Below, piece by piece: positions 1,621 to 27,710 of a stretch of DNA of 32,000 nt. Within the stretch, counting starts at the first letter, position 1. The number at the start of each line of letters is the position of its first letter. Position numbers and translations under genes: made by a program. The notes beneath the pieces were generated by a model, which worked only from the letters and a program-made list of their open reading frames with translations, was not told the DNA's origin and did not search any database. Source of the DNA: Wolbachia endosymbiont of Cimex lectularius (GTDB lineage Bacteria > Pseudomonadota > Alphaproteobacteria > Rickettsiales > Anaplasmataceae); NCBI RefSeq assembly GCF_000829315.1, contig NZ_AP013028.1, positions 1-32,000 on the forward strand, written 5' to 3'.

Positions 1621-2170
1621 AAACAAAAAAACTACTTGACAACCTTCGCCAATACCCTTATAATGAGATTGAAGCTATTATTTATCTTCAGTCTGTGCAG
1701 ATTAAATGACAAAAAAACTTAGTATATCTGGCGTACCATGTTTAATTTTTTGCACTATGTGCACCTCACGTCTTTTTAAAACTTCTGGTTTTTTACCTAT
1801 ACAAGCTGAAACGCGCTTATAAGTCGTTTAAAACATAAAAAAACGCCAATATTATAGGATAGATAGTAAATAACTAGCTACCGGGGTTTCTTTTGCTGTT
1901 TTTTCTGTTTAGTAAATTTTTTAAACGTTTGCAGCTAAGGTTAGTTGCATTAAAAAGCAGCTAAGTCGCATTCATCAAGCGTTTAGAATAAAAAAAACGC
2001 CGATATTTCGACACAAAAGTAAATAACTAGCCACCACGGGGCTTCTTTTGCTTTTTTTTTGTTTAGTAAATTTCTTAATATTTATAGCTAAGGCAATTTA
2101 AGAGCACACAAAAAATGCCAAGAATAATTGCCTTTTAGATGCAAGAAGTTTAGTGTTTGTTATTTACCTA
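1621..2170 (+). repeat. Promoter-bearing modular intergenic repeat, copy A (promoter module, conserved body, 2-3 tandem 3' modules)
   Basis: Aligns by eye with 12521-12939 (reverse complement), 17343-17730, 21445-21745, 21764-21912 and 27711-28090 (reverse complement). Shared blocks: aaaaaactacttgacaa, ttgaagctatt, cttctggtttttacctatacaagctgaaacgcgcttataagtcgtttaa, aacgccaat...ggggtttcttttgc + T-run. Confidence 0.85.
1636..1664 (+). promoter_or_regulatory. Consensus sigma70-type promoter TTGACA-N17-TATAAT inside repeat copy A
   Basis: TTGACA at 1636-1641, 17-nt spacer, TATAAT at 1659-1664. It fires toward the convergent minus-strand gene at 2182-3435. Confidence 0.5.
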
Positions 2171-2181
2171 AAATCGTGACT

Positions 2182-3435
2182 TTAATCTACCTTAAGCTCA
2201 AAGTCTTCCGTTAGCTGTGTAGAATACATTTCCTGATTATCTTGATTATAGAGAGTAAATTCGTGATCATCTAAGTTTAATATTGCAAAACCGAAGCCAA
2301 AAAAGTTTCTAACTTCATGTGCTAAATAATTTTTGCCGTTTGAGTAACTAAATTCTACATTTTGATAAGTAGGTTCCTGATCTTGAGCGTGTAATAGTGC
2401 ACCACCGTTTCCGATTATAATCTGGTCTGGAACATTACTCATCAATAAGATCTGAGCTATGTGAATATGGCCGGAAACTGTGGTAGTGACATTGCTTGGA
2501 AATTTATCTCCAAAAGCTTCAATTTGTGTGAGATTGCCATGACTTTTTAATATCAAAAGTTCTTTTTTTGGAGATCTCCAAAGCGGTCTGTGAGTTAAAA
2601 ACCACGTGGGTTTGTTAGAACTATCTTGTGTTAGTTTGTTAAATTGCTTCTCAAAAGCATCAATTGTACTCTGAGTTGTGAAAATATCTTCACCAGACGA
2701 AGAGTCGAAGATAAAAAATCTCATCGGTCCAATGTCTAAAGACCAGCTAGGAACGAAATTTTCACATTTCTCAGATGAAAAGGGGTATGGATCTAGATAT
2801 CTAAACCATCCTTCATAAGCTCTGTCACAACTTTCATGGTTTCCCCTGACAAAGAGAAAAGAAGATTGTAGTAGAATATCCTTTGCAGGCTCGAACCAAT
2901 CAGCGTACCAAGCTTCTTTATTGTACCCATAAATATTGCCGCACTTTTGTTCATTTCTACATTTTGTTTTTCTGTAATGGTAATCGCCAACGTGGATAAT
3001 TAGGTCAGGTTTATGAGAGGCAATAGAATCTAAGTTTTTTTTTAAAGGCCAACTATCTACCGAATTACATTCCTGTTGAAATAATGCATTTATTCTGCAG
3101 CCCGTATCACCAATAAAAGCAATTTTGCTAATCTTTTCTGGTGATGTGGGGACCTGTATGTTGTCAATATTAATGTTTTCGGCACTCGTTTCTACTATCA
3201 GTTCACAAACTGTTTCGGTGTGATCACCATTGTTAATTGAGCTGCGACTTAGCATTTCTATTTCCTCGCCGTCGACATGAACGATGGGGCAAGTATCATT
3301 GTCTATAATTGCACGTACGCTTAATTTATTTTCCGGAATAGCTTGAGACCACGTGTATAATATCTGTGCATGGGCAGAGTAAAAGCTGGTTATAAGAGAT
3401 AAGGTTAAAAAGATAAGGATATTAGCTATATTCAT
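2182..3435 (-). CDS. Secreted calcineurin-like metallophosphoesterase
   Basis: 417-aa ORF with an N-terminal signal peptide (MNIANILIFLTLSLITSFYSAHA). Metallophosphatase motifs GDTG, HVGDYHY, RGNHE, GHIH. Confidence 0.8.
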   Translation of the reverse strand: MNIANILIFLTLSLITSFYSAHAQILYTWSQAIPENKLSVRAIIDNDTCPIVHVDGEEIEMLSRSSINNGDHTETVCELIVETSAENINIDNIQVPTSPEKISKIAFIGDTGCRINALFQQECNSVDSWPLKKNLDSIASHKPDLIIHVGDYHYRKTKCRNEQKCGNIYGYNKEAWYADWFEPAKDILLQSSFLFVRGNHESCDRAYEGWFRYLDPYPFSSEKCENFVPSWSLDIGPMRFFIFDSSSGEDIFTTQSTIDAFEKQFNKLTQDSSNKPTWFLTHRPLWRSPKKELLILKSHGNLTQIEAFGDKFPSNVTTTVSGHIHIAQILLMSNVPDQIIIGNGGALLHAQDQEPTYQNVEFSYSNGKNYLAHEVRNFFGFGFAILNLDDHEFTLYNQDNQEMYSTQLTEDFELKVD

Positions 3436-3551
3436 TTGTATAAAAACCTAAGTTTAAAATGTATCCGTTCAACGGGGTGACAAAATAGGGTGGACAAGGT
3501 AACATAAAAGATAACCATGGAGTAAAAGTAAGTTTACAACAAAGGATGTTG

Positions 3552-3661
3552 TCCCAGTGCCTAGACACTGGGATCCAGCAAAATTGATTGTAAACAAGTG
3601 CACTATACAGCATTTTAAATGAAACTACCAAAAACTGGATTCCAGTGTCAAGCACTGGAAT
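3552..3661. repeat. Two hairpin repeats of the tcccagtg/cactggga family
   Basis: tcccagtg(3552-3559)/cactggga(3566-3573) and attccagtg(3639-3647)/cactggaat(3653-3661). The same stem motifs recur at 12417-12437, 23465-23600, 26140-26280 and 29829-29854. Confidence 0.8.
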
Positions 3662-3752
3662 AACACCACTTTTGCTTCAATATTCACCACGCCCCTGAAT
3701 GGATATCTTAAAATTAGCGACACAATCATCTTAAATAATTGAAGCTCATAAT

Positions 3753-3795
3753 CACAAAATCAGATCTCTTGCATAACCTGCTTTCTGATTTTGTG
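3753..3795. repeat. Perfect 12-bp inverted repeat (hairpin, 19-nt loop)
   Basis: CACAAAATCAGA at 3753-3764 and TCTGATTTTGTG at 3784-3795. Confidence 0.85.
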
Positions 3796-3991
3796 TCAAA
3801 ACTTGCTTGCGCTTCTCCCAAGTATTCTGTGTGTCTCCTAAAAATTCCTTACCATTAATGCAAAAGATCTATTCATAACAGAATTATACAGACAATTTAT
3901 AAATTATCCTAGTATCAGATTGACACTTTGGATGAAGAATCCTAAAATGATTAAGTAATTTAAAATAATTATATAAAAACTAGAATAAAAT

Positions 3992-4079
3992 GCGGTCGTG
4001 GTGGAATTGGTAGACACGCAGCGTTGAGGTCGCTGTGGCTCATAAGGTCTTGGAAGTTCAAGTCTTCTCGGCCGCACCA
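3992..4079 (+). tRNA. tRNA-Leu (anticodon GAG), type II with long variable arm, CCA encoded
   Basis: Manual cloverleaf. Acceptor GCGGTCG/CGGCCGC (one G-U pair), D arm GTG-AATTGGTAGA-CAC. Anticodon stem CAGCG/CGCTG with loop TTGAGGT. T arm GGAAG-TTCAAGT-CTTCT, discriminator A plus CCA. Confidence 0.9.
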
Positions 4080-4109
4080 AGTTTCTTGTCGTTATTTGAT
4101 GTAGGTAAA

Positions 4110-5192
4110 ATGTTAATAGGAAATCAAGGTAAAAATAAAATAGAGAGGGCCATCAGTGAAATCAGGCGTGGTCTGCCAATTGTAATATATGATGAAAGTG
4201 ATTATCTATTGTTTGCTGCTGCTGAAACTTTAGAGAGGGATTCATTTGATCAGTATAAGCTCATATCAGACAATCTATGTGTCACTTTGACTCCAAGTAA
4301 AGTGCAGTATACGTTCCAAAATGAGGAAAATGGCAGCAAACGCTTGCCGATAAACAACTTTGATGAGCTGCTTTATTTAGTAAACTGTTCAACAGAAGAT
4401 AGCACAAAAGAATTGCTGCGTTCAAAGATGATAGATAAATGTGCTACTACTTTGCTTAAATTCTCGGAATTATTGCCATACGCGTTAGTGATCGATATGA
4501 CTTTTAAAGATAAGAATGAGATGCGAGATTGGTGTGAGAAAAATGACGTCATTGCGTTGGACACATCATTCATAAACGATTTTCAACGAAACCAGGGTTT
4601 ATATGAAGTGTGCAAAACATCATTATTTTTGAAGCAGACTCAAGAAGTAAATATCATATCTTATAGAACCAAAAGTGGCGGGAGGGAACATTATGCAATT
4701 ATTATTGGCAATCCAAATGAAGATGGAGACCTGTTAGTGAGGATTCATTCCTCATGCTATACAGGCGATCTATTAGACAGCTTATCGTGCGATTGTAGAA
4801 GCCAATTACATCAAGCAATCCAAATAATGGCTGACTCTAGCGGTGGCATTATATTATACCTTATGCAGGATGGTAGGGGCATTGGTTTAACTAATAAGTT
4901 AAGGGCATATGATATGCAGAGAAAATATAATCTTGATACTGTGGATGCAAATAGAATATTGGGTTTTGAAGATGATGAAAGGGATTTTACCGTTGCAGCT
5001 GAAATGCTCAAGAAATTAGGCATTAAAAAAGTCCAATTACTTACAAATAACGGTAGAAAGTTATCAGAGTTGAAAAACAGTGGCATAGAGGTTACAAGGT
5101 GTCTACCACTTATTATGGAGCGTAATCAGTATAATAGTTCATATATGGAGACAAAATTTGGCAAGCTAGGCCACAAGTTAAGGGTTTTTTAG
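4110..5192 (+). CDS. ribA: GTP cyclohydrolase II (RibA) with an N-terminal RibB-like but apparently degenerate domain
   Basis: C-terminal half has GTP cyclohydrolase II signatures (HSSCYTGDLLDSLSCDCRSQL, QDGRGIGLTNKLRAY). The track ORF start at 4035 (GTG) overlaps the tRNA-Leu, so the ATG at 4110 (MLIGNQG...) is preferred. Confidence 0.85.
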   Translation: MLIGNQGKNKIERAISEIRRGLPIVIYDESDYLLFAAAETLERDSFDQYKLISDNLCVTLTPSKVQYTFQNEENGSKRLPINNFDELLYLVNCSTEDSTKELLRSKMIDKCATTLLKFSELLPYALVIDMTFKDKNEMRDWCEKNDVIALDTSFINDFQRNQGLYEVCKTSLFLKQTQEVNIISYRTKSGGREHYAIIIGNPNEDGDLLVRIHSSCYTGDLLDSLSCDCRSQLHQAIQIMADSSGGIILYLMQDGRGIGLTNKLRAYDMQRKYNLDTVDANRILGFEDDERDFTVAAEMLKKLGIKKVQLLTNNGRKLSELKNSGIEVTRCLPLIMERNQYNSSYMETKFGKLGHKLRVF

Positions 5193-5263
5193 CTTTTTTG
5201 TTGTAACTACTTTGTTGATTTACTATGTTCGTTAATATTGGTTAAGGTTTTGAGAAAATTAAG

Positions 5264-5944
5264 ATGCTAAAGCTTTTCAAACAGAAAAATAATGAGTCGT
5301 TGGATAAGGATGTAAATTGGAGTTCAAGTCGTTATAGCACAGTTGTTGCTCAGAGAAATACTTTGCTTTTATTTACATTAATATTATTAGTAGCAATTTC
5401 TGTAAGCATATTGGCTATATTTAAAATTAGTACAAGTAGCACTATTGAACCATTTGTTATAGAAATTGAAAAAAAATCTGGAATAGTGCAGTTGGTTGAT
5501 CCTGTTACAGTAAAACAATATTCTGCGGATAAAGTACTAAACAATCATTTTATTGCAGAATATATAAAGGCAAGAGAGGTTTTTGATAAATATAACTACA
5601 ATTATAACTATTACACAAAGGTGAGGTTATTTTCTTCACCCAATGTATATAATGAATTTAGAAATTATATAAGTTCGCAGAACATGGATGATCTTTTTAA
5701 TTTATATTCAGGTTTTGTTAAAAATGAGTTTAAGATTCGCTCAATTCAGAAATTGTATGATGATACCTTTCAGGTGAGGTTTACTGTGGAATTTACACGA
5801 AAAAATGGAAGCTCTGTAAAAAAGAACAAGATAGTCATCATGTCGTATAAATATGCATCACTTGAAATGAATGATCAGCAAAGATACGTTAATCCGTTAG
5901 GATTTCAGGTTACTTCTTATAGGGTAGATGATGAACATGTGTAG
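5264..5944 (+). CDS. virB8: Type IV secretion system protein VirB8
   Basis: 226 aa with a single N-terminal TM (LLLFTLILLVAISVSILAIF) followed by a periplasmic domain. It is first in a virB8-9-10-11-D4 gene string and overlaps virB9 by 17 nt. Confidence 0.85.
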   Translation: MLKLFKQKNNESLDKDVNWSSSRYSTVVAQRNTLLLFTLILLVAISVSILAIFKISTSSTIEPFVIEIEKKSGIVQLVDPVTVKQYSADKVLNNHFIAEYIKAREVFDKYNYNYNYYTKVRLFSSPNVYNEFRNYISSQNMDDLFNLYSGFVKNEFKIRSIQKLYDDTFQVRFTVEFTRKNGSSVKKNKIVIMSYKYASLEMNDQQRYVNPLGFQVTSYRVDDEHV

Positions 5945-6737
5945 AATATTATTAGTTTTAGCTTTACTGATAAATAGCAGTTTAAGTGCATCAGTTAATT
6001 ACAATAAGCCTATTTCTGTAGATAGTAGAATAAAAACTTTTGTGTATAGCCCTAACGAAGTATTCACAGTTGTTTTCAGTCAAGGCTACTATTCTTATAT
6101 TGAATTTGCAGAAGGAGAAAAAGTCAAAAACATTGCTGTTGGTGATGCGTCAAGTTGGAAAATTAGCCCTTATGACAATAAATTACTTATCATGCCATTT
6201 GAAGTTAGTAGCCGCACTAACATGATTATCACAACCACCAAAAAAAGAAATTACATTTTTGATTTAATCTCAAGACCAAACTACGATAAATACCCAGATA
6301 CTGATACTGAGAAAATAAGTCACGATTATTCTGCTGAAAAAGATATATCTTATGTAGTACGTTTTTATTACCCTCAAGAGGAAGATGAATTTGATGTTGA
6401 TTTAGATGAAGTATCAACGCCTACTCAAATGCAATATGTTGTAGACAAGCCAGAAGGAGTAATACAGGAAAATGACAAGAAGTACAATTATACATATATC
6501 GATGAAGGTGTTAACACTGATATAATACCAATTGAGTTATTTGACGATGGCTATTTAACCTATTTTAAATTTAGGGACAGTAACAAAATACCTCAGATTT
6601 TTACAGAAGAGGGTAAAACTAAATTACCTTGTAAAAGACTGTTATTTGATGGTTATGTTATAATAAAAGGGGTGCATAAGAAATTGTTCATGCGTTATGA
6701 GAATAATGAGGTTGAAATTATAAATAGGTCACTTTAG
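5928..6737 (+). CDS. virB9: Type IV secretion system protein VirB9
   Basis: 269 aa, signal peptide (MCRILLVLALLINSSLSA), VirB9/CagX-like size and position between virB8 and virB10. Confidence 0.85.
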   Translation: MMNMCRILLVLALLINSSLSASVNYNKPISVDSRIKTFVYSPNEVFTVVFSQGYYSYIEFAEGEKVKNIAVGDASSWKISPYDNKLLIMPFEVSSRTNMIITTTKKRNYIFDLISRPNYDKYPDTDTEKISHDYSAEKDISYVVRFYYPQEEDEFDVDLDEVSTPTQMQYVVDKPEGVIQENDKKYNYTYIDEGVNTDIIPIELFDDGYLTYFKFRDSNKIPQIFTEEGKTKLPCKRLLFDGYVIIKGVHKKLFMRYENNEVEIINRSL

Positions 6738-6753
6738 CTGTGGTACATGTAAT

Positions 6754-8241
6754 ATGAGTAAAGAAAAGCGTAACAATTCGGAAAATGAGTCAGAAATAGA
6801 GAGCAATGTAGTAACAGTTGGCTCTAATCAAGGCCATAGAGCATTAATGGTTGTTATTTTAGTGCTTCTAGTTGGTGGGATATATTATCTCTATTTTAGT
6901 CCTTCTTCCGATGAAGAGGATGTGGAAACCATTAGAAAGGAAGAAACGGAGCAAAATGTTCAAGAATTGAAAGGAAAGTTGGAGAAAGTTCCAGATAATA
7001 CAGCAGTTCCTGAAAGGATAATAACTGATCTGCCATCTTTACCTCCTATTTCTACACCGCAAATTATACCGGAAGTAAAACAGTCTAAAAAAGAAGAAAT
7101 GGTAAAAAAAGAAGAAGAAAAACCAAAAGAAACGCCTATGTCAAATATACCTGTTTTGCCAAAGCAAAACTTCCCTCATAGCAATATTACTAGCAATTTA
7201 CCAACATCGTTTCCTACAATAGGTGGAGGTGGTTATCCTAGAGACAGACGTGGTGCACAAATGTTAGCAATTTCAGGTGGTGGTAAAGAGGGCAAGGCTG
7301 CCGATGCCGTTTTATCTAACACTTCAATACAGCCGAGTATAGCTACCAAAGTGGGAAAACTTGGGTTTATGATTACTCAAGGTAAAATTATTGATGCTGT
7401 TCTTGAGACTGCAATAAGTTCTGATCTGCAAGGAACGCTACGTGCTGTGGTTAGTAGTAATGTTTATGCAGAGACTGGTGATACGGTTTTAATACCCAGA
7501 GGTTCAAGATTGATAGGTGGCTATTCATTTGACTCGAATGTTGCAAGAGTTCGCATAAATATAAACTGGAATAGGATCATTCTTCCTCATGGAATAGATA
7601 TTGCTATTTCATCACCTGGCACCGATGAGCTTGGTAGAGCAGGAGTAGCTGGCATAGTTGATAATAAAATAGCAAGTGCATTGTTTTCTTCAATATTGCT
7701 TGCAGGCGTTTCGATTGGGTCAGCTGTTATAGGACAAAAGTCTTCCAATCTTGTTGATGCGCTAACTCCTATGGATGCGGTGAGAGCTATCACTGCAACT
7801 GAAATAGATTTTTCTTCACTCAAGGATGTCATTATTGATGGACTAAAGGGTGACAGTGCAGCTAAAGTTGAGAAAGCAGAGGGAAAAGCGTGGAAATTGG
7901 GTCTTGGAGCTATTGGCAGAATTAAGAATGCTAAAAATGAGCAAGATTTGCTGAAGATAATGAAAGAGGAAATAGCAAAAGCGTTAGGAATTGAAAAAGA
8001 TAAGGTAAATATAAGCCTAGAAGACATAAATCAACTGCTACAACAATTTCTAGGAAAAAACAAGTCTGTCTATGAAGAAGCAATTAGCAAATCAATCAAT
8101 GATTTTTCTAAAGATATGCGAGATATAGTCGAAAGATCTACAGATAAAAAACCAACTGTTTATGTCGATCAAGGCACCGCGTTGAAAGTATTTGTTAACC
8201 AAGATATAGTATTTCCTCCACAGGCAATATTAAACCAGTAA
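6754..8241 (+). CDS. virB10: Type IV secretion system protein VirB10
   Basis: 495 aa. N-terminal TM, Pro/Lys/Glu-rich linker, C-terminal TrbI/VirB10-type domain (IPRGSRLIGGY..., PTVYVDQGTALKVFV). Confidence 0.9.
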   Translation: MSKEKRNNSENESEIESNVVTVGSNQGHRALMVVILVLLVGGIYYLYFSPSSDEEDVETIRKEETEQNVQELKGKLEKVPDNTAVPERIITDLPSLPPISTPQIIPEVKQSKKEEMVKKEEEKPKETPMSNIPVLPKQNFPHSNITSNLPTSFPTIGGGGYPRDRRGAQMLAISGGGKEGKAADAVLSNTSIQPSIATKVGKLGFMITQGKIIDAVLETAISSDLQGTLRAVVSSNVYAETGDTVLIPRGSRLIGGYSFDSNVARVRININWNRIILPHGIDIAISSPGTDELGRAGVAGIVDNKIASALFSSILLAGVSIGSAVIGQKSSNLVDALTPMDAVRAITATEIDFSSLKDVIIDGLKGDSAAKVEKAEGKAWKLGLGAIGRIKNAKNEQDLLKIMKEEIAKALGIEKDKVNISLEDINQLLQQFLGKNKSVYEEAISKSINDFSKDMRDIVERSTDKKPTVYVDQGTALKVFVNQDIVFPPQAILNQ

Positions 8242-8242
8242 A

Positions 8243-9235
8243 ATGAACTATGCTGCACTTGATACATATTTAGAGCCATTACAAGGCATCTTTCAAGAGG
8301 AAGGTGTAAATGAAATATCAATAAATAAGCCAAAGGAAGTATGGATTGAAAATCGTGGTGAAATAAGGTGTGAAAAATTAGAGATATTCGACCTTAACCA
8401 TTTAAAATCTCTTAGCAGACTGATTGCTCAAGCCACAGAACAAAAACTTAGCGAGGAAGCACCGCTGCTTTCAGCTACATTACCAAATGGTTATCGTATA
8501 CAGATAGTATTTCCACCAGCATGTGAGTCTGATAAGGTAGTCATGTCAATTCGTAAACCTTCTACCATGCAATTAGCATTGGATGATTATGAAAAGATGG
8601 GGGCTTTTTCTGAAACTGTTATAGAAGTAACTGATGATCCAGTGGATCGTCACCTGGATTCACTATTAAAGCAAAGGAGAATAAGAGAGTTTTTAGAATA
8701 CGCTGTAATAAATAAAAAAAACATCATAATCAGTGGCGGAACTTCTACTGGTAAAACTACTTTCACTAACGCAACTTTGCGTACCATTCCAGCCGAAGAA
8801 AGAATTATTACTGTTGAAGATGCGAGGGAAATCGTTTTGAACGATCACCCCAATAGAGTACATTTAATTGCCTCTAAAGGAGGGCAGGGCAGGGCCAAAG
8901 TGACCACTCAAGATTTGATAGAAGCATGCTTACGCTTAAGACCAGATAGAATAATAGTTGGTGAGCTCCGTGGAGCGGAAGCTTTTAGCTTTCTTAGGGC
9001 AATAAACACTGGTCACCCAGGATCAATATCAACCCTTCATGCGGATAGTCCAGCAATGGCCCTTGAGCAAATAAAACTGATGGTCATGCAAGCAAATCTT
9101 GGCATTCCCCCAGATCAGATCATACCATACATCAGAAATGTAATCGATATTGTCATTCAGCTAAAAAGAACCAGCGGGGGGAAAAGAAGCATATCTGAAA
9201 TATTATTTACTAGATCATCGGATGAAAATGCTTAA
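8243..9235 (+). CDS. virB11: Type IV secretion ATPase VirB11
   Basis: 330 aa. Walker A GGTSTGKTT, RPDRIIVGELRG, His box TGHPGSISTLHA. Starts 1 nt after the virB10 stop. Confidence 0.95.
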   Translation: MNYAALDTYLEPLQGIFQEEGVNEISINKPKEVWIENRGEIRCEKLEIFDLNHLKSLSRLIAQATEQKLSEEAPLLSATLPNGYRIQIVFPPACESDKVVMSIRKPSTMQLALDDYEKMGAFSETVIEVTDDPVDRHLDSLLKQRRIREFLEYAVINKKNIIISGGTSTGKTTFTNATLRTIPAEERIITVEDAREIVLNDHPNRVHLIASKGGQGRAKVTTQDLIEACLRLRPDRIIVGELRGAEAFSFLRAINTGHPGSISTLHADSPAMALEQIKLMVMQANLGIPPDQIIPYIRNVIDIVIQLKRTSGGKRSISEILFTRSSDENA

Positions 9236-9263
9236 ATTTATACATAATGAGGAAAAGTAGTTT

Positions 9264-11402
9264 ATGAGTAATGGAAATCATCTACGCAACATTCTGATAG
9301 GAGGGGTTGTAGCTTTCAGTGTACTAGAATTTTGCTTCTATTTATCTGGTATATTGTTTTACCTCTTTGTTGATGGTCCAGATGGCGTGGATTTTAAAGC
9401 AATTAACCCTAGCTTGACGCCTTTTCCTCAAGCTCTTTGGCCAACAATTTTTGATCATATACAATATTGTTGGCGTCATCCAGAGTTGTATAGCCTTGAG
9501 CTCAAAATTAAGTTGGTTGTATTTTCTGCGCTGCCTATCGTTGTCTTGATGATTATTTTGTGGAATTTAAGAGAAAGGGTAGTTGAGTGGCGACCATTTA
9601 AAAAGAAAGAATCACTACACGGAGATTCGAAGTGGGCATCAGAAAAAGACATAAGAAAAGCCGGGTTAAGAAGCAAAAAAGGGTTATTGCTTGGTAAAGA
9701 TAAAAGGGGCTACTTTATTGCTGAAGGGTTTCAACATGCATTGCTGTTTGCTCCTACAGGTTCGGGTAAAGGTGTTGGCTTTGTAATTCCTAATTTATTA
9801 TTTTGGACTGACTCGGTAATTGTACACGACATAAAATTAGAAAACTATGAAATAACAAGTGGTTGGCGAGAACGGCAGAAGCAAAAGGTATATGTGTGGA
9901 ATCCAGCACAGCCAGATGGAATAAGCCACTGTTATAATCCGCTACAATGGATTAGTGAAAAACCTGGACAGATGGTTGATGATGTGCAGAAAATAGCTAA
10001 CCTAATCATGCCTGAACAAGACTTTTGGCAAAATGAAGCAAGAAGCTTGTTTGTTGGAGTAGTATTGTACTTACTTGCTACACCGGAGAAAGTTAAATCT
10101 TTTGGTGAAGTTGTGCGCACGATGCGTAGTGATGACGTGGTTTATAATCTCGCTGTTGCTCTTGATACAATGGGTAAAATAATACACCCTGTGGCATACA
10201 TGAACATTGCGGCTTTCTTGCAAAAAGCTGAGAAAGAAAGGTCAGGTGTCGTATCAACTATGAACTCATCACTTGAATTGTGGGCAAACCCATTGATTGA
10301 TACTGCAACGGCGACAAGTGATTTTAATATTTTAGATTTTAAAAAGAAGAAAACTACAGTTTATGTCGGCTTAACTCCTGATAACTTAACTAGATTAAGA
10401 CCTTTAATGCAGGTTTTCTACCAGCAAGCAACTGAGTTTTTGTGTAGAAAATTGCCATCGGATGATGAGCCTTATGGTGTATTGTTTTTGATGGACGAGT
10501 TTCCAACACTTGGAAAAATGGAGCAATTTCAAACTGGCATTGCATATTTTCGTGGTTACAGAGTTAGATTGTTCTTAATTGTTCAAGATACTGAACAGCT
10601 CAAAGGAATATACGAAGAAGCAGGGATGAACTCCTTTTTATCAAACTCAACATACAGGATAACTTTTGCAGCTAATAACATTGAGACGGCTAATTTAATA
10701 TCGCAGCTGATAGGAAACAAAACTGTGCAACAAGAATCGTTGAATAAACCTAAATTTTTAGATTTGAATCCTGCTTCAAGATCGTTGCATATTTCTGAGA
10801 CACAGAGAGCGTTGCTGCTGCCTCAAGAAATTATTATGTTGCCACGTGATGAGCAGATAATTTTAATAGAGTCGACTTATCCAATTAAATCAAAGAAGAT
10901 TTTGTACTACAGTGATAGCACCTTTACGAGGAAGCTGCACAAATCAACTTTTGTGCCTACACAAGAGCCATATGATCCAAATAAAGTTTTTTCTGCTACT
11001 AACGAAGATAAAATTAGTAAAGAAGAAAATAATGCTATCGCAGGGCCTAGTACTGCTGATTATCCTGTTGAAACTCAAACCGAAGATGCAATATATGATG
11101 AATCAGAGATTAACGATGAGCTTAAAGAGGAAGATCTTGATGATGAATATGTTGACGACAAGTTTGAAGATGAAGAAGATGACGGGTTTGATGATGAAGA
11201 GGATGAATTTGAAAGTGGTGATGAATTTAAAGAAGAAAGAGACGATGACGGGTTTGACGACGAAGAGGATGAATTTGAAGGTGGTGATAAATTTAAAGAG
11301 GAAAGAGACGATGATGGGTTTGATGACGAAGAGGATGAATTTGATGATGAAGATATTGACGACGAATTAAAAAATGACAACAAAGCCGAAGATAAAGGTT
11401 AA
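9264..11402 (+). CDS. virD4: Type IV secretion coupling protein VirD4 with an acidic repeat C-terminal tail
   Basis: 712 aa. Two N-terminal TM segments, Walker A APTGSGKGVG, Walker B-like VLFLMDEF, TraG/VirD4 family layout. The last ~120 aa are D/E-rich. Confidence 0.93.
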   Translation: MSNGNHLRNILIGGVVAFSVLEFCFYLSGILFYLFVDGPDGVDFKAINPSLTPFPQALWPTIFDHIQYCWRHPELYSLELKIKLVVFSALPIVVLMIILWNLRERVVEWRPFKKKESLHGDSKWASEKDIRKAGLRSKKGLLLGKDKRGYFIAEGFQHALLFAPTGSGKGVGFVIPNLLFWTDSVIVHDIKLENYEITSGWRERQKQKVYVWNPAQPDGISHCYNPLQWISEKPGQMVDDVQKIANLIMPEQDFWQNEARSLFVGVVLYLLATPEKVKSFGEVVRTMRSDDVVYNLAVALDTMGKIIHPVAYMNIAAFLQKAEKERSGVVSTMNSSLELWANPLIDTATATSDFNILDFKKKKTTVYVGLTPDNLTRLRPLMQVFYQQATEFLCRKLPSDDEPYGVLFLMDEFPTLGKMEQFQTGIAYFRGYRVRLFLIVQDTEQLKGIYEEAGMNSFLSNSTYRITFAANNIETANLISQLIGNKTVQQESLNKPKFLDLNPASRSLHISETQRALLLPQEIIMLPRDEQIILIESTYPIKSKKILYYSDSTFTRKLHKSTFVPTQEPYDPNKVFSATNEDKISKEENNAIAGPSTADYPVETQTEDAIYDESEINDELKEEDLDDEYVDDKFEDEEDDGFDDEEDEFESGDEFKEERDDDGFDDEEDEFEGGDKFKEERDDDGFDDEEDEFDDEDIDDELKNDNKAEDKG
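11181..11348 (+). repeat. 66-bp in-frame tandem repeat, about 2.5 copies, inside the virD4 3' end
   Basis: Units at 11181-11246 and 11247-11312, partial unit 11313-11348. Each unit encodes DGFDDEEDEFE(S/G)GD(E/K)FKEERDD. Confidence 0.9.
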
Positions 11403-11519: not shown

Positions 11520-12376
11520 ATGAGTAATAAAAAAACATTAGCAGTTATAGCATTTACTTTATTATTGTCACAACAGTCTTTTGCAAGCGAAACGGAAGGA
11601 TTTTACTTCGGTGGTGGATATCACGGCCAATTTTTAATAGCATAGGTTCACTGAAAGTCGAAGCGGCTAAAGGAAGTAAACATGTGACTGTGGACGAAAT
11701 GTACGTTCCGGACAAGATAAAAGGTCAAAAACCAAGTGAATACAAGGGAGACTATAATCCACCTTTTGCTGGAGGTGTAGTGTTTGGTTATGAAGGAGAA
11801 TTGGGTAACAATAGCTATAGAGCTGAATTGGAAGGAATGTATTCTTCTATAAAAGCGGATAATGTTGGATTAGAAGGCAACCAAATGAGTGTATCGTATC
11901 TCAAAGAAATTAGTGGAAAAAAATATATATATGATACTAAAGTAGATAATGACCAAATTGAAAACATGTCTGTAATGGCCAATGCCTACTATCATTTGAA
12001 GAATGATAGTTTCTCCTTTTCTCCTTATGTTGGGGCTGGAGTCGGTTTAACAAGGATGAGGATATTTGGAGAGGCGTCAATAAAACCTGCATATCAATTA
12101 AAAGCTGGTCTTGATTATTCCATAAATGAAAGTGTAAATATGCATGTTGGATATAGACATTTTGGTGCCTTTGGTACGAGTCATGAGCTAAAGGCAGATT
12201 TGTTGGGAAAAGTGAAACCCGGTACTTCAGGAGCAAAATCGACATTGGATGACAGTGTTAAAAACAGTCCACCAGACGGAGTTGCAAAACAGGAAAATAT
12301 AAATATAGGCAGTGGATTATTTGCTACACACGGTATAGAGGCTGGTCTTACTTTCCATTTTGCTAGCAAATCTTAA
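11520..12376 (+). pseudogene. wspB: wsp-paralog outer membrane protein (wspB-like), frameshifted
   Basis: ATG at 11520 encodes a signal peptide plus SETEGFYFGGGYHGQF, then hits TAG at 11643-11645. The rest of the surface-antigen beta-barrel (230 aa, ends GIEAGLTFHFASKS) continues in the +2 frame to 12376. One extra nt in the T5 run 11631-11635 would fuse the two parts. Confidence 0.7.
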
Positions 12377-12416: not shown

Positions 12417-12512
12417 TTCCAGCGTGTAACGCTGGAATTCAGGAGAAAAAGAAGCATGGATCCCAATGGACTTTGTTGCATAGCTAGCTACGCAACAAAG
12501 CCAACTGGGATG
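12417..12512. repeat. Hairpin repeats downstream of wspB
   Basis: ttccagcg(12417-12424)/cgctggaa(12430-12437). Also ctttgttgc(12471-12479)/gcaacaaag(12492-12500), nested within an imperfect tcccaatgg/ccaactggga pair. Confidence 0.8.
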
Positions 12513-12520
12513 TTACTTTA

Positions 12521-12939
12521 GCAATAAATATTTAAGAAATTTACCAAATAAAAAAAAAGCAAAAGAATCCCCGTGGCGGCTAGTTATTTACTTTTGTGTC
12601 GAAATGTTGGCGTTTCTTTATCCTAAACGCTTAATAAGTGCGACTTAGCTGCTTTTTAAGGCAACTAACCTTAGCCATAAACATTTAAGAAATTCACTAA
12701 GCAGAAAAACAGGCAAAGAAACCCCGAGTAGCTAGTTATTCACTCTATCTTATAACATTGGCGTTTTTGATGTCTTAAACGACTTATAAGCGCGTTTGAG
12801 CTTGTATAGGTAAAAAACCAGAAGTTTTAAAAAGACATACGGTGCACATAGTGCAAAAAATTAAATATGAGACGCCAAATATGCTAAGTTTTTTTGTCAT
12901 TTAATCTGCACAGACTGAAGATAAATAATAGCTTCAACC
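12521..12939 (-). repeat. Promoter-bearing modular repeat, copy B (promoter module missing, abuts IS)
   Basis: Reverse complement aligns with 1668-2095 of copy A. The alignment stops at ttgaagctatt, exactly at the IS target site 12940-12942. Confidence 0.85.
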
Positions 12940-12998
12940 TTAGAACCTGTTTAAAATCTTGGAAATGTGAGGTAAAGTAAGCATAGATTAATAATGAG

Positions 12999-13319
12999 GT
13001 GTCTATGCAGAAAAGTTATCCAAGTAATATAAGTCAAGAGCAGTTTGAAAAAATCAGGCCAATTTTGGAGAGTAGCAAGCAGAAAACAAAACCAAGAAAA
13101 CTTGATTTGTATGACGTATTTTGTGGGGTGTTGTACGTCTTAAAAAGTGGTTGTCAGTGGAGGATGTTACCAAAGGGTTTTCCAAGATGGGAAAGCGTAT
13201 ATTACTATTTTCGAGTGTGGAGTAAAAAGAATGGAGAAGAGCCAAGCTTGTTGGAATTAGTCTTAAAAAAAATTAGTTGGAGAGGTCCGTATCAGCAATG
13301 GTCGGAAAGAGAAAACTAG
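12999..13319 (+). CDS. IS5-family transposase, N-terminal part (orfA)
   Basis: 106 aa with the typical IS5 N-terminal region (LYVLKSGCQWRMLPKGFPRWESVYYYFRVW). Confidence 0.85.
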   Translation: MSMQKSYPSNISQEQFEKIRPILESSKQKTKPRKLDLYDVFCGVLYVLKSGCQWRMLPKGFPRWESVYYYFRVWSKKNGEEPSLLELVLKKISWRGPYQQWSEREN

Positions 13320-13794
13320 CTTTTGTATAATTGATTCTCAAAGCGTTAAAAACGCAGATACTGCTGAAAAAAAAGGCTATGATGCAGGTAAAAAGATTTC
13401 AGGGATAAAGCGCCATATTGCAGTTGATACACAAGGTTTGCCACATGCAATTTATGTAACAACGGCAGAAGCAACTGACCGTAGCAGTGCTGTGAAAATG
13501 GTCGAAAATGCTAAAGCAAACCTCTCTGAAGTTAAAAACATACTGGTTGATGCTGGCTACACAGGAGAAAATTTTGCAACACAAATAAAAGCTATCATTG
13601 GTGCGACTGTTGAAGTAATAAAGCGAAGTGAGTTACACACTTTCGTCGTATTGCCAAAAAGATGGGTTGTTGAACGCTCTTTTGCCTGGTTAGAAAAGTG
13701 CAGGCGATTGTGGAAAAATTGCGAGCGGAAGCTCAACACTAGCTTACAGATGATAGTCCTCTCCTTCATTTCTCTCCTGTTACGAAGATTTTAA
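13273..13794 (+). CDS. IS5-family transposase, catalytic part (orfB), reached by a +1 frame change at an A8 run
   Basis: The frame is open from 13273 (LVGEVRISNGRKEKTSFCIIDSQSVKNADTAEKKGYDAGKKISGIKRHIAVDTQGLPHAI...DAGYTGE...RWVVERSFAWLEKCRRL), a DDE_Tnp_1-like sequence. The track lists only 13438-13794. Confidence 0.75.
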   Translation, partial: LVGEVRISNGRKEKTSFCIIDSQSVKNADTAEKKGYDAGKKISGIKRHIAVDTQGLPHAIYVTTAEATDRSSAVKMVENAKANLSEVKNILVDAGYTGENFATQIKAIIGATVEVIKRSELHTFVVLPKRWVVERSFAWLEKCRRLWKNCERKLNTSLQMIVLSFISLLLRRF

Positions 13795-13874
13795 ACAGGT
13801 TCTTATGTATAAAATAATTCTATTGTATATATGCTGGAAATTTTTGCATTAGAAAATTTTTTTGTTACCTAAAA

Positions 13875-17342: not shown

Positions 17343-17730
17343 AAAAAACTACTTGACAAATTTCTCCAACCCCTTATAATGATACTGAAGCTATTCATTT
17401 AACTTCGCAATCTGCAGATTAAAATGACAAAGGAAACTTTGTATTTGGCGTCTCATGTCTTTATAAAAACTTCTGGTTTTTACCTGTACAAGCTGAAACG
17501 CGCTTATAAGTCGTTTAAGACAGTATAGAACGTCAAATAGAACAAGGGAGAATTTGAATACTAGCTGCTCTGGGTTTCTTTTGCCTTTTTTTTCTGCTTG
17601 GTAAATTTTTTAATATTTAAACTAAGGTCTGTTGCAGTTTAAAAGTCGCTAAACTGCAGCGTTTAAGACTTAAAAAAACGCCAATACTGAAAATAAGTAC
17701 TGACCAGGGCTTCTTTTGTCTTTAATTTGT
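17343..17730 (+). repeat. Promoter-bearing modular repeat, copy C
   Basis: Same block order as copy A, with an internal ~34-bp deletion and two 3' modules. Confidence 0.85.
17353..17380 (+). promoter_or_regulatory. Sigma70-type promoter TTGACA-N16-TATAAT in repeat copy C
   Basis: TTGACA at 17353-17358 and TATAAT at 17375-17380. Oriented toward the CDS at 17873. Confidence 0.45.
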
Positions 17731-17872: not shown

Positions 17873-18655
17873 ATGACCGCTTTTGTTCCTTTGGTTGTTT
17901 TTTTAATCTTGTACATTGGAGGCGGTGTTTATTTTTCTTTGATTGGAACTGACAATCCATTTAATCAAATTTCACCAGTAATTTGTCTACTACCAGCACT
18001 ATTTTTAGCTGTTTCATGCAGTACGGATAAAATTCAGCATAATATCAATACTGCTGTAGAGGGTATGGGTAGAAAAACCGTTCTTGTTATATGCTTGATT
18101 TTTTTGTTTTCTGGAGCATTTTCTGCTGTTGCCAAGTCAATTGGTAGCGTAGACGTGGCCACTGACTTAGTTGTTAATTTCTTTCCAGCAAGGTTACTAC
18201 TACCTGGGATGTTTTTGGCCTCTGCTTTTATCTCAACTGCAATTGGTACATTTATGGGAGTTGTCGCATTAATAGTGCCTATAGCTGTTAATCTAGCGCA
18301 AAATGGAGCTTTCGGTCTTGAAGTAGGAACTGCAACTGTGGTAGTCGGTGCTATGTTTGGCGACAACCTTTCAATGATATCCGCTCCGACTATTGCAGCT
18401 ATCTCGTTACAAGGATCTTCAGCAATAGATAGACTTAAAGCGAATTATAAGGTTGCATTCGTTGCAGGCGCTATAACATTCACTTATCTAGCGATCATTT
18501 CAAATAGTCCAGGAGTTATTCATGTATCAAGTTTAGATTATTATTCCATAATAAAGGTTATTCCTTACATTTCTTTAATAATCATGGGTTTATTTGAAGT
18601 AAACGTTCTAATAGTACTAGCCACCAACAATGCTGATAAGCCTAGTACTCAATAG
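17873..18655 (+). CDS. Polytopic inner-membrane transporter-like protein (Na+/H+ antiporter NhaC-family-like; possibly truncated)
   Basis: 260 aa, almost entirely hydrophobic with several predicted TM helices. The family assignment is from recollection of similar Rickettsiales proteins and is not verified. Confidence 0.45.
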   Translation: MTAFVPLVVFLILYIGGGVYFSLIGTDNPFNQISPVICLLPALFLAVSCSTDKIQHNINTAVEGMGRKTVLVICLIFLFSGAFSAVAKSIGSVDVATDLVVNFFPARLLLPGMFLASAFISTAIGTFMGVVALIVPIAVNLAQNGAFGLEVGTATVVVGAMFGDNLSMISAPTIAAISLQGSSAIDRLKANYKVAFVAGAITFTYLAIISNSPGVIHVSSLDYYSIIKVIPYISLIIMGLFEVNVLIVLATNNADKPSTQ

Positions 18656-21264: not shown

Positions 21265-21444
21265 GTATAACCATTATTTAAATGAAAAGACCCACAATCT
21301 TACCATTGCTGCAAAAACCTTAGGAATAAACATATTTAATCCTGATTGTCAATAGTAAACTGAGGCTAACCATTTTATGTCAAGTTTGATGAAAGCAAAA
21401 TAATTGCGATAGCTGGCTGGATTCAGATTTTTTAGCCATAGAAA

Positions 21445-21745
21445 AAAACTACTTGACAACCTTCATCAATCCCCCTATCATAGTATTGTGGGTGTTTAAA
21501 GCCTAAAATTTATCTTTAATCTTAGTATTAAGTGACAAAAGCACAGTATAAAACAAGGCGTGTTATGTTTAATTTTTGCAGCATGGACACTGCATGTCTT
21601 TATAATTTTTTGTCTACATTAGCTGGACCTCGCTTATTAAGCGGTGTAAGAGAGAACCGGACGCCAAGTTTTTGAGAGAACAGTAAACAACTCACATTGC
21701 GGGGTTTCTTTTGTCTTTTTTTTAAGTTAGTTAAAAATTTAACCA
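21445..21745 (+). repeat. Promoter-bearing modular repeat, copy D (diverged)
   Basis: aaaaaactacttgacaa with TTGACA at 21453-21458, N17, TATCAT at 21476-21481. Diverged body, 3' module acgccaag...ggggtttcttttgtc + T-run. Confidence 0.75.
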
Positions 21746-21763
21746 ATCTCATTTTTTTCACAA

Positions 21764-21912
21764 AAAAACTGCTTGACAAGTTTCGACATTTCCCTTACCA
21801 TAAATTATGGGTATTTACAACCCCAAGGTCAGCTACTTGTCAAGCGTATAGAGCATTAACGCCAAGTTATTAAAATAGATATTGGCCAGGGCTTCTTTTG
21901 CCTTTTTTTAGC
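21764..21912 (+). repeat. Promoter-bearing modular repeat, copy E (short: promoter module + one 3' module)
   Basis: TTGACA at 21773-21778, N17, TACCAT at 21796-21801. 3' module aacgccaag...gggcttcttttgcc + T-run. Also has an 11-bp inverted repeat, 21771-21781 with 21835-21845. Confidence 0.7.
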
Positions 21913-22048
21913 CTTGCTACTCGTTAGCGCCACGTTAACTAATCACACGGGATTGTGCAGTAGGCCTAGCTTAACATAAAAATTTTGACTTTTTGAAATT
22001 TTTTTATTACACTCGAGTATAGTTCACCATTAGCAAGGGGTAGTTATT

Positions 22049-23356
22049 ATGAAAAAAGAAGAAGCTTTAAAAATATTAGGTTTTAGCGAGGGTGCTAATC
22101 CTGATGATGAATATGAAATTAGAAAAGCATATAGAAAATTAGCCCTAAAATATCATCCTGATAGACATTCAGGTGCAAGTAAGGATGTGCAAAAACAAAA
22201 CGAAGAGAAATTTAAAGAATTAGATGCTGCATATAAATTTTTTACTGGAGAAGATGCAAAAGAGGTTACAAATCTAATCAACAAAAATTTAGATGACATT
22301 AGGTCCCCTGAAGATTTGAAGTTTTACTTATATAAGGCTCTCTGCAATCAAGATATAGCGTTTCTTAAAAAGCTTTTTTCCAAATTCAAAAGCAGTAAGG
22401 GTGGAGAATTTGGTGATTACATCAATGAAATGCATTTCGAAAATTACTTGCCATTGACGATTGCTTTATTTGGCGCTAGAGATTCAGGGGATTTTAGTCT
22501 TTTGAACCTACTTTTAACAAATGGTGCTAATCCTAACATAAAAGTATATTATGACGAAACGCCATTATATTGTATCGGAATTCTTGAAGACAGTAGAATT
22601 GTGGAGCTACTGTTAAAACATGGCGCTAACCCTGATATAAAAAATGAGAGTGGTGGCACTCCATTAATTGTGGCTTCTGGTAAAGGGTATTATGAAACTG
22701 CCAAAATACTTTTGGAATACAAGGCTGATCTTAATATACAAGATAAGTATGGTAATACTCCATTAAGTAAAGCGTCTTTTAGGGGGCATTATAAAATTGT
22801 AGAACTGCTTTTGAAGCATGGTGCTGGTAAAGAAAGCGAAAGTGTCAATAAAGCACTACTTGAAGCAGTGCGATTTCATGAACATGGGCATGATAAGGAA
22901 AAAACCGTGGAACTACTCCTAAAGTATGGTGCAAATCCTAATGAAAAGAATTACCACATGAGATTAATAGAACGTGCTCCATATTTCGCTAATAGTGGGA
23001 TAATAAATTGCATTAAGAAGATTGTTTTGCCATATGGCAGCAATGACAAAGTTAAAAAGTTGATGGCTGAATACGGTGGCGTTGATAGATGCTATCTACG
23101 TGATCAAACGATACTGACTTGCTGTTGCCTGATAGTAGCTTCTGCTACTTTGTTTAGTATGGCTTCTCCTTGGCGTTATATACCGACAACGATATTTACA
23201 CTTGCCGCATGTTTTTTCGTTAAAAATGCTGTACAGTCAGCATTTTTTGCAAAAACAAAAGAACCTTCTCCTGAGTTTGCTGAAGTTATTACTGAAAAAG
23301 CTGTTGGGTCAAATGCCAAGGACAATTCTCAAGAAATCAATAGTGCATTAGTTTAA
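22049..23356 (+). CDS. J-domain (DnaJ-like) + ankyrin-repeat protein with C-terminal hydrophobic segments
   Basis: 435 aa. N-terminal J domain with HPD (AYRKLALKYHPDRH). At least 4 ankyrin repeats (TPLxxA...ELLLKHGANPD/N). Two hydrophobic stretches near the C-terminus (ILTCCCLIVASATLFSMA, IPTTIFTLAACFFV). AAGGGG ribosome-binding site upstream. Confidence 0.85.
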   Translation: MKKEEALKILGFSEGANPDDEYEIRKAYRKLALKYHPDRHSGASKDVQKQNEEKFKELDAAYKFFTGEDAKEVTNLINKNLDDIRSPEDLKFYLYKALCNQDIAFLKKLFSKFKSSKGGEFGDYINEMHFENYLPLTIALFGARDSGDFSLLNLLLTNGANPNIKVYYDETPLYCIGILEDSRIVELLLKHGANPDIKNESGGTPLIVASGKGYYETAKILLEYKADLNIQDKYGNTPLSKASFRGHYKIVELLLKHGAGKESESVNKALLEAVRFHEHGHDKEKTVELLLKYGANPNEKNYHMRLIERAPYFANSGIINCIKKIVLPYGSNDKVKKLMAEYGGVDRCYLRDQTILTCCCLIVASATLFSMASPWRYIPTTIFTLAACFFVKNAVQSAFFAKTKEPSPEFAEVITEKAVGSNAKDNSQEINSALV

Positions 23357-23359
23357 CCA

Positions 23360-23880
23360 ACAACTGCACGAACATTATGATTTAAGATTAATCTCAACCA
23401 GGAAGGATGTCATTCCAGCGCGTGACGCACATCTGTACGAACATTGTGCTACTAGGAGGGTGTCATGCCAGTGCTTAACACTGGCATCCAGGAATTTTAT
23501 TAAGTTGGTGAGTATAAAAGTAGCTGTTTTATGTTAAAATACGACGTTTTAATGATTATGGAAATGGTGGATCCCAGTGTCGGAGCACTGGGATGACACC
23601 GTCTGTTAAGCAAATTACCTGCTAATTGCAATGTTCGTACAGTTGTGTGCTTGATCACTGGCATCCAGAAATTTTATCAAGTAGGTGAGCATAAAAGTTG
23701 TGTTAAAATGCACCATTTTTATGGAAAACTAGATCCCAGTATCAAGTACTGGGATGACAAAAAAGGAAGCGCTGGAATGACAAGAAATGGAGGCGTTGAG
23801 ATGACAGGAAGGGGCTACTTATATAACACCTTCCGGTGAGAGTTGCTCTCAAACTGCAATGTTTGTACAGTTGTAGAACG
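23360..23880. repeat. Nest of palindromic/hairpin MITE-like repeats
   Basis: Hairpins gccagtg/cactggc (23467-23487) and atcccagtg/cactgggat (23571-23594). Inverted pairs tgtcattccagcgc (23408-23421) with gcgctggaatgaca (23770-23783), and ctgtacgaacattg (23433-23446) with caatgttcgtacag (23629-23642). Confidence 0.85.
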
Positions 23881-26015: not shown

Positions 26016-26082
26016 ACTTCTCACATAGCCATATGAAAAATCAGTAATCCACTCTCTATATCATTCCGGCGCCCCTTCTTCT

Positions 26083-26290
26083 GTCATTCCAGCGCGTGAC
26101 GCACAACTGTACGAACATTGTGATTTGAGCCTACCACTAGGGTGTCATGCCAGTGTCAAGCACTGGCATCCAGGAATTTTATTAAGTTGGTGAGTATAAA
26201 AGTAGCTGTTTTATGTTAAAATACGACGTTTTGATGATTATGGAAATGGTGGATCCCAGTGTCGGAGCACTGGGATGACACCGTCTGTTA
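26083..26290. repeat. Second copy of the 23408-23608 palindromic element, cut by IS copy 2
   Basis: Near-identical by eye to 23408-23608. Both run to ...caccgtctgTTA. The paralog continues agcaaattacc, whereas here the IS begins. Confidence 0.85.
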
Positions 26291-26298
26291 GAACCTGT

Positions 26299-26820: not shown

Positions 26821-27094
26821 TTTTTTTTAAGACTAATTCCAACAAGCTTGGCTCTTCTCCATTCTTTTTACTCCACACTCGAAAATAGTAATATACGCTT
26901 TCCCATCTTGGAAAACCCTTTGGTAACATCCTCCACTGACAACCACTTTTTAAGACGTACAACACCCCACAAAATACGTCATACAAATCAAGTTTTCTTG
27001 GTTTTGTTTTCTGCTTGCTACTCTCCAAAATTGGCCTGATTTTTTCAAACTGCTCTTGACTTATATTACTTGGATAACTTTTCTGCATAGACAC
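26774..27094 (-). CDS. IS5-family transposase, N-terminal part (orfA), copy 2
   Basis: Translation identical to 12999-13319. Confidence 0.85.
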   Translation of the reverse strand: MSMQKSYPSNISQEQFEKIRPILESSKQKTKPRKLDLYDVFCGVLYVLKSGCQWRMLPKGFPRWESVYYYFRVWSKKNGEEPSLLELVLKKISWRGPYQQWSEREN

Positions 27095-27150
27095 CTCATT
27101 ATTAATCTATGCTTACTTTACCTCACATTTCCAAGATTTTAAACAGGTTC

Positions 27151-27557: not shown

Positions 27558-27710
27558 CATCATTTTTAGGGTCGAGAAATTTTGAGAAAGCCACGACTAT
27601 AGTACTTAAAAATATTAATAATTATACACAATTCTGTAGAAATATTCAATCTTTTTGTTTCGGATGTATTGGCCTACGAACCCAAGCCTCATCTTGAATT
27701 GCAACTATAT

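Follow-up and report, generated by a model that had tools for sequence, protein, structure and literature searches.

A family of modular, promoter-bearing intergenic repeats in Wolbachia links an anonymous repeat class, VNTR loci and orphan transcription start sites

Results

Gene content of the window

The window, by which we mean the whole stretch of 32,000 nucleotides that was analysed, stems from the Wolbachia endosymbiont of Cimex lectularius and carries dnaA, a gene with orthologues that match Metallophos (the metallophosphoesterase gene), ribA, virB8-11, virD4, an unassigned ORF at 11684-12376, cckA, hemF, acnA, recG and rpoH. The gene order from dnaA to virD4 is that of supergroup A and D genomes. 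The best relative of DnaA was found in a Wolbachia MAG (97% identity) and, among the matches listed, the nearest genomes at the DNA level were termite-associated MAGs and the Wolbachia of Mansonella, Penenirmus, Paracimex and a cicada, all of which we take to belong to supergroup F or to lie near it.

Several features of the window stand apart from the repeat family described below. An Rfam match to WsnRNA46 was found at 3533-3682, and ~246 bp around it (3460-3707) had no aligned counterpart at the orthologous place in the termite MAG Gx481 (L007), whose alignment passes from 1737-3460 directly to 3707-10023; this stretch has short palindromic repeats in common with 23565-23607 and 26247-26296. 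Upstream of ribA (4035), a TTGACA, 17 nt and TAAAAT (11/12) are present at 3920-3948, with no relation to the family. The 3' end of virD4 (9264-11402) contains a tandem repeat (11142-11384) with a period of 66 nt in which acidic residues (D/E) are abundant, and recG (23967-26015) is bracketed by direct repeats of ~200 nt (23408-23608 and 26082-26290, 95-98% identical), of which a third, partial copy is located at 23656-23698.

Six copies of a modular repeat

The initial annotation had proposed that six loci share one ordered set of modules. Repeat finding and alignment recovered all six (copies A to F), at about the coordinates first reported and in mixed orientation, with the common order P (A-run, TTGACA, 16-17 nt, TAnnAT), M2, M3 and then one or two U units. 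The first module is missing from copy B and, therefore, the promoter is present on five loci, not six.

Copy A (about 1617-2095, from ~1625, plus strand) is a full P-M2-M3-U-U between the convergent dnaA and metallophosphoesterase genes. In the family-wide comparison, conservation sets in sharply at 1625-1627 and fades past ~2095; a short, looser motif, (CC)AATAGAAAC, is often found just ahead of the onset. P (1625-1670) comprises an A-run (1625-1631), which would fit the consensus AAAAAARNR of a proximal UP element, the -35 hexamer TTGACA (1636-1641), a 17-nt spacer and the -10 hexamer TATAAT (1659-1664). With 12/12 matches to the sigma-70 consensus it is indeed the textbook promoter that it had been taken for. 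By homology to wMel, transcription is predicted to start at 1671, the G of GAAGCTATT and the seventh base past TATAAT. M2 (1671-1765) contains a 5' stem, GAAG/CTTC (1671-1689), and the hairpin TGCAC-TAT-GTGCA (1751-1763). M3 (1766-1835), the most conserved block, contains the imperfect dyad AAACG-CGCTTATAAGT-CGTTT (~1808-1829). The U units (1836-2095) are a full unit of ~153 nt (1836-1990) and a partial unit (1991-2095), and a unit is made up of AACGCCRAT, ~30 nt, GGGGYTTCTTTTGC, a T-run and then TTAGTAAATTT.

On both sides of copy A, at 1577-1594 and 2137-2155, a motif consisting of TAGACYTCTTGCATA and then TTTTGGCAGCGCG is found in inverted orientation, each of the two shortly after the 3' end of the gene next to it. 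Of 70 copies in the family, 18 had the inverted flank motif AGACTTCTTGCATA in the left flank and 12 had it in the right one, and it may be a separate module at gene ends.

Copy B (12518-12939, minus strand) has the layout M2-M3-U-U and is adjoined, where P would be expected, by an IS of 864 bp at 12940-13803. The promoter of copy B was found neither beyond this IS nor beside the second IS copy (26290-27153), which is inverted relative to the first and 100% identical to it; the ends of the IS read TTAGAACCTGTTTAAAATCTT, and the same IS end was found after M3 in another locus (L103). Copy C (17343-17730, plus strand) has its -35 hexamer at 17353-17358, a 16-nt spacer, a -10 TATAAT at 17375-17380 and a predicted start at 17387; M2 carries an internal deletion and is followed by M3, one U and one short U. 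Copy D (21442-21745, plus strand) belongs to a diverged subfamily that recurs in L013, L048 and L124. It has TTGACA (21453-21458), 17 nt, TATCAT (21476-21481) and one U, a hairpin at 21577-21594 and, at the place of the M3 palindrome, the palindrome cgcttattaagcg (21631-21643; CGCTTATTAAGCG), and its predicted start is at ~21488. The M3 dyad, this palindrome and the small hairpins described as tgcac/gtgca and tgcag/ctgca were thus all confirmed in the window. Copy E (21762-21912, plus strand) is minimal, with P (TTGACA 21773-21778, 17 nt, TACCAT 21796-21801), a predicted start at ~21808 and one short U. Copy F (27707-28088, minus strand) has TTGACA at 28079-28074, 17 nt, TATCAT at 28056-28051 and a predicted start at 28044, followed by an M2 with an internal deletion and M3-U-U. 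A fragment of a group II intron (D1-D4, 27389-27505, minus strand like copy F) was detected by Rfam a short way downstream of this copy, between it and the second IS copy, so that a cluster of mobile DNA adjoins the element here.

The family in other Wolbachia genomes

The M3 20-mer ACGCGCTTATAAGTCGTTTA was found at at least 120 loci across nine Wolbachia genomes. Many of these loci, among the matches listed, are located at contig ends, as expected of a repeat that breaks assemblies. Module mapping among the matches listed gave P-M2-M3-U-U (n = 34) and P-M2-M3-U (n = 33) as complete layouts, and most other forms were cut by contig ends. Diverged members were found in supergroup B (wTpre, with an intact promoter) and supergroup D (wLsig, with a decayed one). 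With 6 copies per 32 kb here and 3 per 21 kb in the Paracimex strain, versus 0-1 per 21 kb in supergroups A, B and D, the family looks denser in the supergroup-F-like lineage. A hand comparison of the wMel IGR-1021 insert (supergroup A) with locus L002 (supergroup F) revealed ~57 identical nucleotides from M3 into the start of U. For 40 copies the orientation of the downstream gene was scored: 22 of these genes share the strand of the element and 18 have the opposite one, in keeping with an element that is independent of its neighbours.

Conservation of the promoter

The 16-mer AAAAACTRCTTGACAA occurs five times in the window versus 0.13 expected occurrences, and none of 100 shuffles reached five. 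Scored against the sigma-70 consensus, copies A and C reached 12/12, copies D and F 11/12 and copy E 10/12; both 12/12 matches in the window, two of its four 11/12 matches and one 10/12 match come from the family. For a family-wide tally, 100 copies were picked via M3 and, thus, independently of the promoter. P was present in 96 of them, many of which are mutually orthologous and hence not 96 independent samples. TTGACA was unchanged in 91 of the 96 and the spacing was 17 nt in 93, while the -10 hexamer had the form TAnnAT in 79 (TATCAT 48, TATAAT 12, TATTAT 9, TACCAT 7, TACTAT 3; other variants were rarer). The 17 spacer columns had identities of 0.40-0.99 with a mean of ~0.7. Hexamers and spacing are retained while the spacer varies, just as had been noticed in the window, and the promoter is the best-kept feature of the element after M3. 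The conservation of the hexamers could reflect shared inheritance and homogenisation driven by conversion rather than selection on each copy.

One segment of the spacer is also well kept: a CCC(C/T)T that adjoins the -10 hexamer on its upstream side (window 1655-1658, spacer positions 14-17) is conserved to 82-95% at three positions. It falls outside the sigma-70 consensus and may be read by a second sigma factor or a regulator.

Transcription of homologues in wMel

Wolbachia promoters of the TTGACA/TATAAT type are known from published work. The 5'RACE inserts of wMel IGR-1047 and IGR-1021 are printed in a supplement (Woolfit et al. 2015) and alignment along the family modules identified both as family members. 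Right after the adaptor, the IGR-1047 RNA begins with GAAGCTATTG... (GAAGCTATTGTATTTGC...) and the IGR-1021 RNA with GAAGGCATTC... (GAAGGCATTCAGTTATC...), and the start G equates to window position 1671. The insert of IGR-1047 extends through M2, M3 and the T-run of the first U, and wMel IG-1021 is co-transcribed with its downstream gene, reading into the coding sequence. In addition, the 5'RACE primers of six more wMel intergenic regions match family modules, and U is among the modules matched by such IGR-specific primers. A homology to ncrwmel02 had been considered as well and was dropped, since its published sequence is unrelated; ncrwmel01 is also of other sequence (Woolfit et al. 2015).

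The 5'RACE coordinates of wMel are absent, by coordinate, from the supplement of the Cappable-seq study of wMelPop-CLA, and the start sites of the family were recovered from it by sequence. Cappable-seq captures primary 5' ends. The TSS 131390, 713865 and 1067756 (Suliman et al. 2025) are preceded, within the 50 nt upstream, by ...TTACTTGACA, 17 nt, TATCAT and 7 nt and are followed by M2. TSS 131390 and 713865 are located at the same G as the 5'RACE ends, TSS 1067756 is 1 nt upstream. These 5' ends agree with the start about 7 nt past the -10 hexamer that had been predicted from the window. Two of the three homologues were induced at 4 h of a temperature shift, TSS 131390 with log2 2.4 at 34 °C and log2 2.4 at 21 °C and TSS 713865 with log2 1.4 and 1.6 upon heat and cold (Suliman et al. 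2025). Since multi-mapping reads were discarded in that study, other copies may have gone unseen. The promoter of the family is, therefore, active in wMel homologues; we infer the same activity, and likewise the transcript length, for the genome analysed here.

The location of the promoter does not fit the outward-firing cassette that had been suggested. P occupies the 5' edge and drives transcription across the element itself, and transcripts can leave the far end by read-through only, as is the case for wMel IG-1021.

Coding potential, RNA structure and termination

Copies A (1706-1822) and B contain ORFs of 38 codons which, together with the multi-copy, intergenic arrangement and the strong promoter known from type I toxin loci, would be compatible with a small protein such as a 38-residue toxin. 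A hand count between A and B gave seven non-synonymous and two synonymous changes, the ATG of copy A reads ACG in most family members, and copies C and F have deletions in this region. The ORF is not conserved and a protein-coding function was dropped; the small-protein reading is effectively refuted, and conservation is, as first proposed, at the nucleotide and not at the protein level.

An RNA gene with a conserved structure was not supported either. Rfam searches with the window (gathering threshold) and with copy A (E up to 10) revealed nothing relevant for the element, and no match of copy A exceeded a significance of E = 0.5. Single-copy folds of copy A on both strands had z-scores of +0.3 and -1.0 versus shuffles, by which a stably folded RNA is rejected, and from a 73-sequence alignment RNAalifold derived a consensus of -2 kcal/mol with no more than 7 pairs. 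The 5' stem, GCAC-TAT-GTGC and the M3 dyad, three hairpins that had been drawn by hand, were paired to 92% but mostly invariant; helix 1, the 5' stem, was paired to 87% and helix 2 to 91.5%, with few two-sided changes. Changes that affected both partners of a pair were counted in 16 cells versus 8.7 in shuffles, for a structure that was drawn from the same sequences, and the covariation signal is modest. The small hairpin before M3 differs by subfamily (AAAAC/GTTTT versus ACCTAG/CTAGGT), a difference the alignment cannot score. Such a weakly conserved structure is unusual for a trans-acting sRNA.

The U units were also considered as intrinsic terminators. The cores of 31 units from a motif search had minimum free energies of -3 to -8 kcal/mol with a mean z of ~+0.5 versus shuffles, on both strands. 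As neither strand of the cores forms a stable hairpin, the label is unjustified; a G+C-rich stable hairpin was not found in them, and transcription in wMel goes on beyond the first T-run. M3 and P were also inspected by eye for CtrA-, IHF- or sigma-32-like sites, a reading that was rejected because the half-sites are lost in diverged copies.

Insertion, turnover and probable recombination between copies

The gap between dnaA and the metallophosphoesterase gene is 27 bp in supergroup A and 19 bp in supergroup D, but 646 bp here, which identifies the block of copy A as an insertion. At the dnaA site of the Paracimex strain a decayed copy with a broken promoter (TTGATA, shortened spacer) was found, so that one lineage at least can do without the element. 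In F-like genomes, counterparts occupy the sites orthologous to copies A, B, C, D and F, e.g. in L051 for copy F, and the site orthologous to copy B in the Wolbachia of Psylliodes (L078) contains a complete P-M2-M3-U-U. Empty sites were not found among the F-like genomes sampled, a sample that had been chosen for presence of the element.

Between orthologous sites, divergence within the element exceeds that of third codon positions in the adjacent genes. Between copy A and L055, identity was 93% at third codon positions of dnaA and 93% in the left flank, versus 47% in the spacer, 83% in M2, 93% in M3 and 75% in U; between copy D and L112, the values were 91% (third codon positions of acnA), 89% (left flank), 65% (spacer), 65% (M2), 69% (M3) and 66% (U). 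The -35 hexamer was unchanged in both pairs. The greater divergence inside the element indicates that the occupant of a site was swapped for a member of another subfamily, recombination between copies being the simplest route. Further, the number of U units differs by about one between orthologous sites, in line with what has been described for the VNTRs of wMel. Synteny with the Wolbachia of Penenirmus (L112) ends at the right edge of copies D/E (21721-22048) and copy B is where it changes for the Psylliodes strain, so that rearrangement breakpoints coincide with family members.

The suggestion of a mobile element was borne out in part. The empty site in supergroups A and D speaks for mobility in the past. 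A search for terminal inverted repeats turned up nothing but matches of low complexity, 11-14 nt long, that rest on A-runs and T-runs, a target duplication could not be read at the empty site of copy A as the flanks in supergroups A and D are too diverged, and a related transposase was not found in the window, whose sole IS has different ends. Mobility is only historical.

Discussion

Few transcription factors are present in Wolbachia, which raises the question of what shapes its transcription. We consider it probable (about 0.62) that the loci described here are members of a family of non-coding intergenic repeats, dispersed, modular and found across Wolbachia, in which each copy is a self-contained transcription unit. 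Direct support comes from the family and its module order, the preferential conservation of hexamers and spacing, the lack of coding potential, one empty site and the replacement of subfamilies. In the mechanism that we propose, RNA polymerase would be recruited by the near-consensus sigma-70 promoter at the 5' edge (A-run, TTGACA, 17 nt, TAnnAT) and would start at the G of the initiation motif, position 1671 in copy A. It would then transcribe the AT-rich, weakly structured M2 and M3 and one to three VNTR-type U units, whose T-runs would halt transcription only partly. The product would be an orphan non-coding RNA of 100-350 nt or a long leader into a downstream gene on the same strand. The copies would have been inserted into intergenic DNA long ago and would be reshuffled at present by recombination between copies, with U units being gained and lost by slippage. 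As for a role, the RNA could serve as an orphan RNA, as a leader for downstream genes, or for nothing. A bolder extension, which we regard as improbable, is a multi-copy regulatory RNA system: dozens of near-identical, stress-induced ncRNAs with a constrained M3 core would act in trans, perhaps as a sponge or guide that is tuned by dosage and is directed at a factor of Wolbachia or of the host, with a dose set by the copy number that was expanded in the supergroup-F-like lineage.

The same observations can be read differently. The element could be a portable promoter with a 5' leader that supplies, in cis, a strong stress-responsive promoter to the gene downstream while the RNA itself has no function. 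The wMel IG-1021 transcript, which runs into the downstream coding sequence, would be explained well, and so would copies C and D/E, which face the co-oriented genes 17873-18655 and 22049-23356, and the 22 of 40 copies with a downstream gene on the same strand. However, the downstream gene converges on the element in the other 18, copy A is located between two gene 3' ends where it would yield antisense RNA only, and a mere promoter donor does not need M3, although M3 is the most conserved block; on balance we think this rather unlikely. Less likely still is a selfish or neutral dispersed repeat, e.g. a MITE-like relic, whose promoter is an inherited by-product and which persists because selection in Wolbachia is inefficient. 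The empty copy A site in supergroups A and D, the copies that break MAG assemblies at contig ends, the synteny breaks and the IS and intron insertions that adjoin copies, the decayed copies in the Paracimex strain and the abundant anonymous repeats and inefficient selection described for wMel (Wu 2004) all go along with it. Against it stand the lack of convincing terminal inverted repeats beyond the 11-14 nt A-run/T-run matches, the unreadable target duplication and the failure to find a related transposase; nor would a by-product be expected to keep its hexamers and 17-nt spacing far better than its spacer or to retain the ~57 nt from M3 to U in identical form between supergroups A and F.

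Finally, the element could act as DNA, with the M3 palindrome and the U motifs as protein-binding sites or the U units as bidirectional terminators or insulators. M3 contains a near-palindrome and diverged copies keep other palindromes at this place, as copy D does; each U core is flanked by an A-run and a T-run, and a consensus scan detected terminator-like sites on the minus strand at 2014-1997 and 17704-17680. Yet the 31 U cores fold no better than shuffles on either strand, transcription in wMel continues past the first T-run, no binding protein is known and the orientation of the copies in the window is mixed, and a role at the DNA level appears very unlikely to us. We favour the family of self-contained transcription units. 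It unites three records: the anonymous repeat that is most abundant in wMel, the loci used for VNTR typing, and a number of orphan TSS. If this link holds, a sizeable share of the "orphan" or "intergenic" transcription of Wolbachia would come from one repeat family, filters that drop multi-mapping reads would under-count it, and a change in VNTR copy number would alter a transcribed RNA and not an inert spacer. Furthermore, the family marks recombination-prone sites that coincide with synteny breaks.

Relation to known repeats and loci

The initial annotation had not recognised the repeat as a named family; it is not wholly undescribed, since its DNA is already on record. The wMel repeat classes 11, 4 and 3 (Wu 2004) are homologous sequence, as 5'RACE inserts and Cappable-seq flanks align over all modules, P, M2, M3 and U alike. 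Class 11 (89 segments; Wu 2004, Table S1) fits the most abundant repeat of that paper and spans wMel 1,216,516-1,217,060 (IGR-1047), 713,868-714,301 (TSS 713865) and the VNTR-105 locus; class 4 spans 1,190,018-1,190,200 (IGR-1021), where class 3 is also found, and classes 1-7 have segments at 12,456-13,174. The classes were published as coordinates, without anatomy, promoter or transcription. VNTR-105 and VNTR-141 (Riegler et al. 2005, 2012) are, like U, arranged in tandem in intergenic DNA, with units of 105-153 bp that differ in number from strain to strain. U at 1934-1950 is matched by the VNTR-141 reverse primer gactaaaggttagttgcat at all bases but one; the likeness of U and VNTR units is founded on this primer match, the overlap with class 11 and the variation in U count. 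In the VNTR papers the arrays are typing markers without a link to an upstream promoter or to M2/M3. Among the highly transcribed IGRs of wMelPop-CLA (Woolfit et al. 2015), IGR-1047 and IGR-1021 are members of the family with the same promoter and start, and so are the orphan or internal TSS 131390, 713865 and 1067756 (Suliman et al. 2025); these studies handled the loci singly, with no description of a family, and left several out of consideration as being repetitive or subject to read-through. In the openly accessible literature we found no description of repeat, VNTR and start sites as one promoter-bearing modular element, and a full-text search for the element's own sequence strings retrieved only the VNTR primer paper. 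What is presented here is a link between known pieces and not a new kind of element or system.

Other bacteria, too, have small non-coding elements that are intergenic, occur in many copies and may come with promoters, such as the Correia elements of Neisseria and the BOX elements of pneumococci, the latter being modular with a variable number of middle units. These families possess terminal inverted repeats or else strong stem-loops, and in the case of Correia a TA target is duplicated. The Wolbachia family differs from them in showing no convincing terminal inverted repeats, no strong stem-loops and no readable TA duplication and in carrying, at one edge, a complete consensus promoter that fires through the element.
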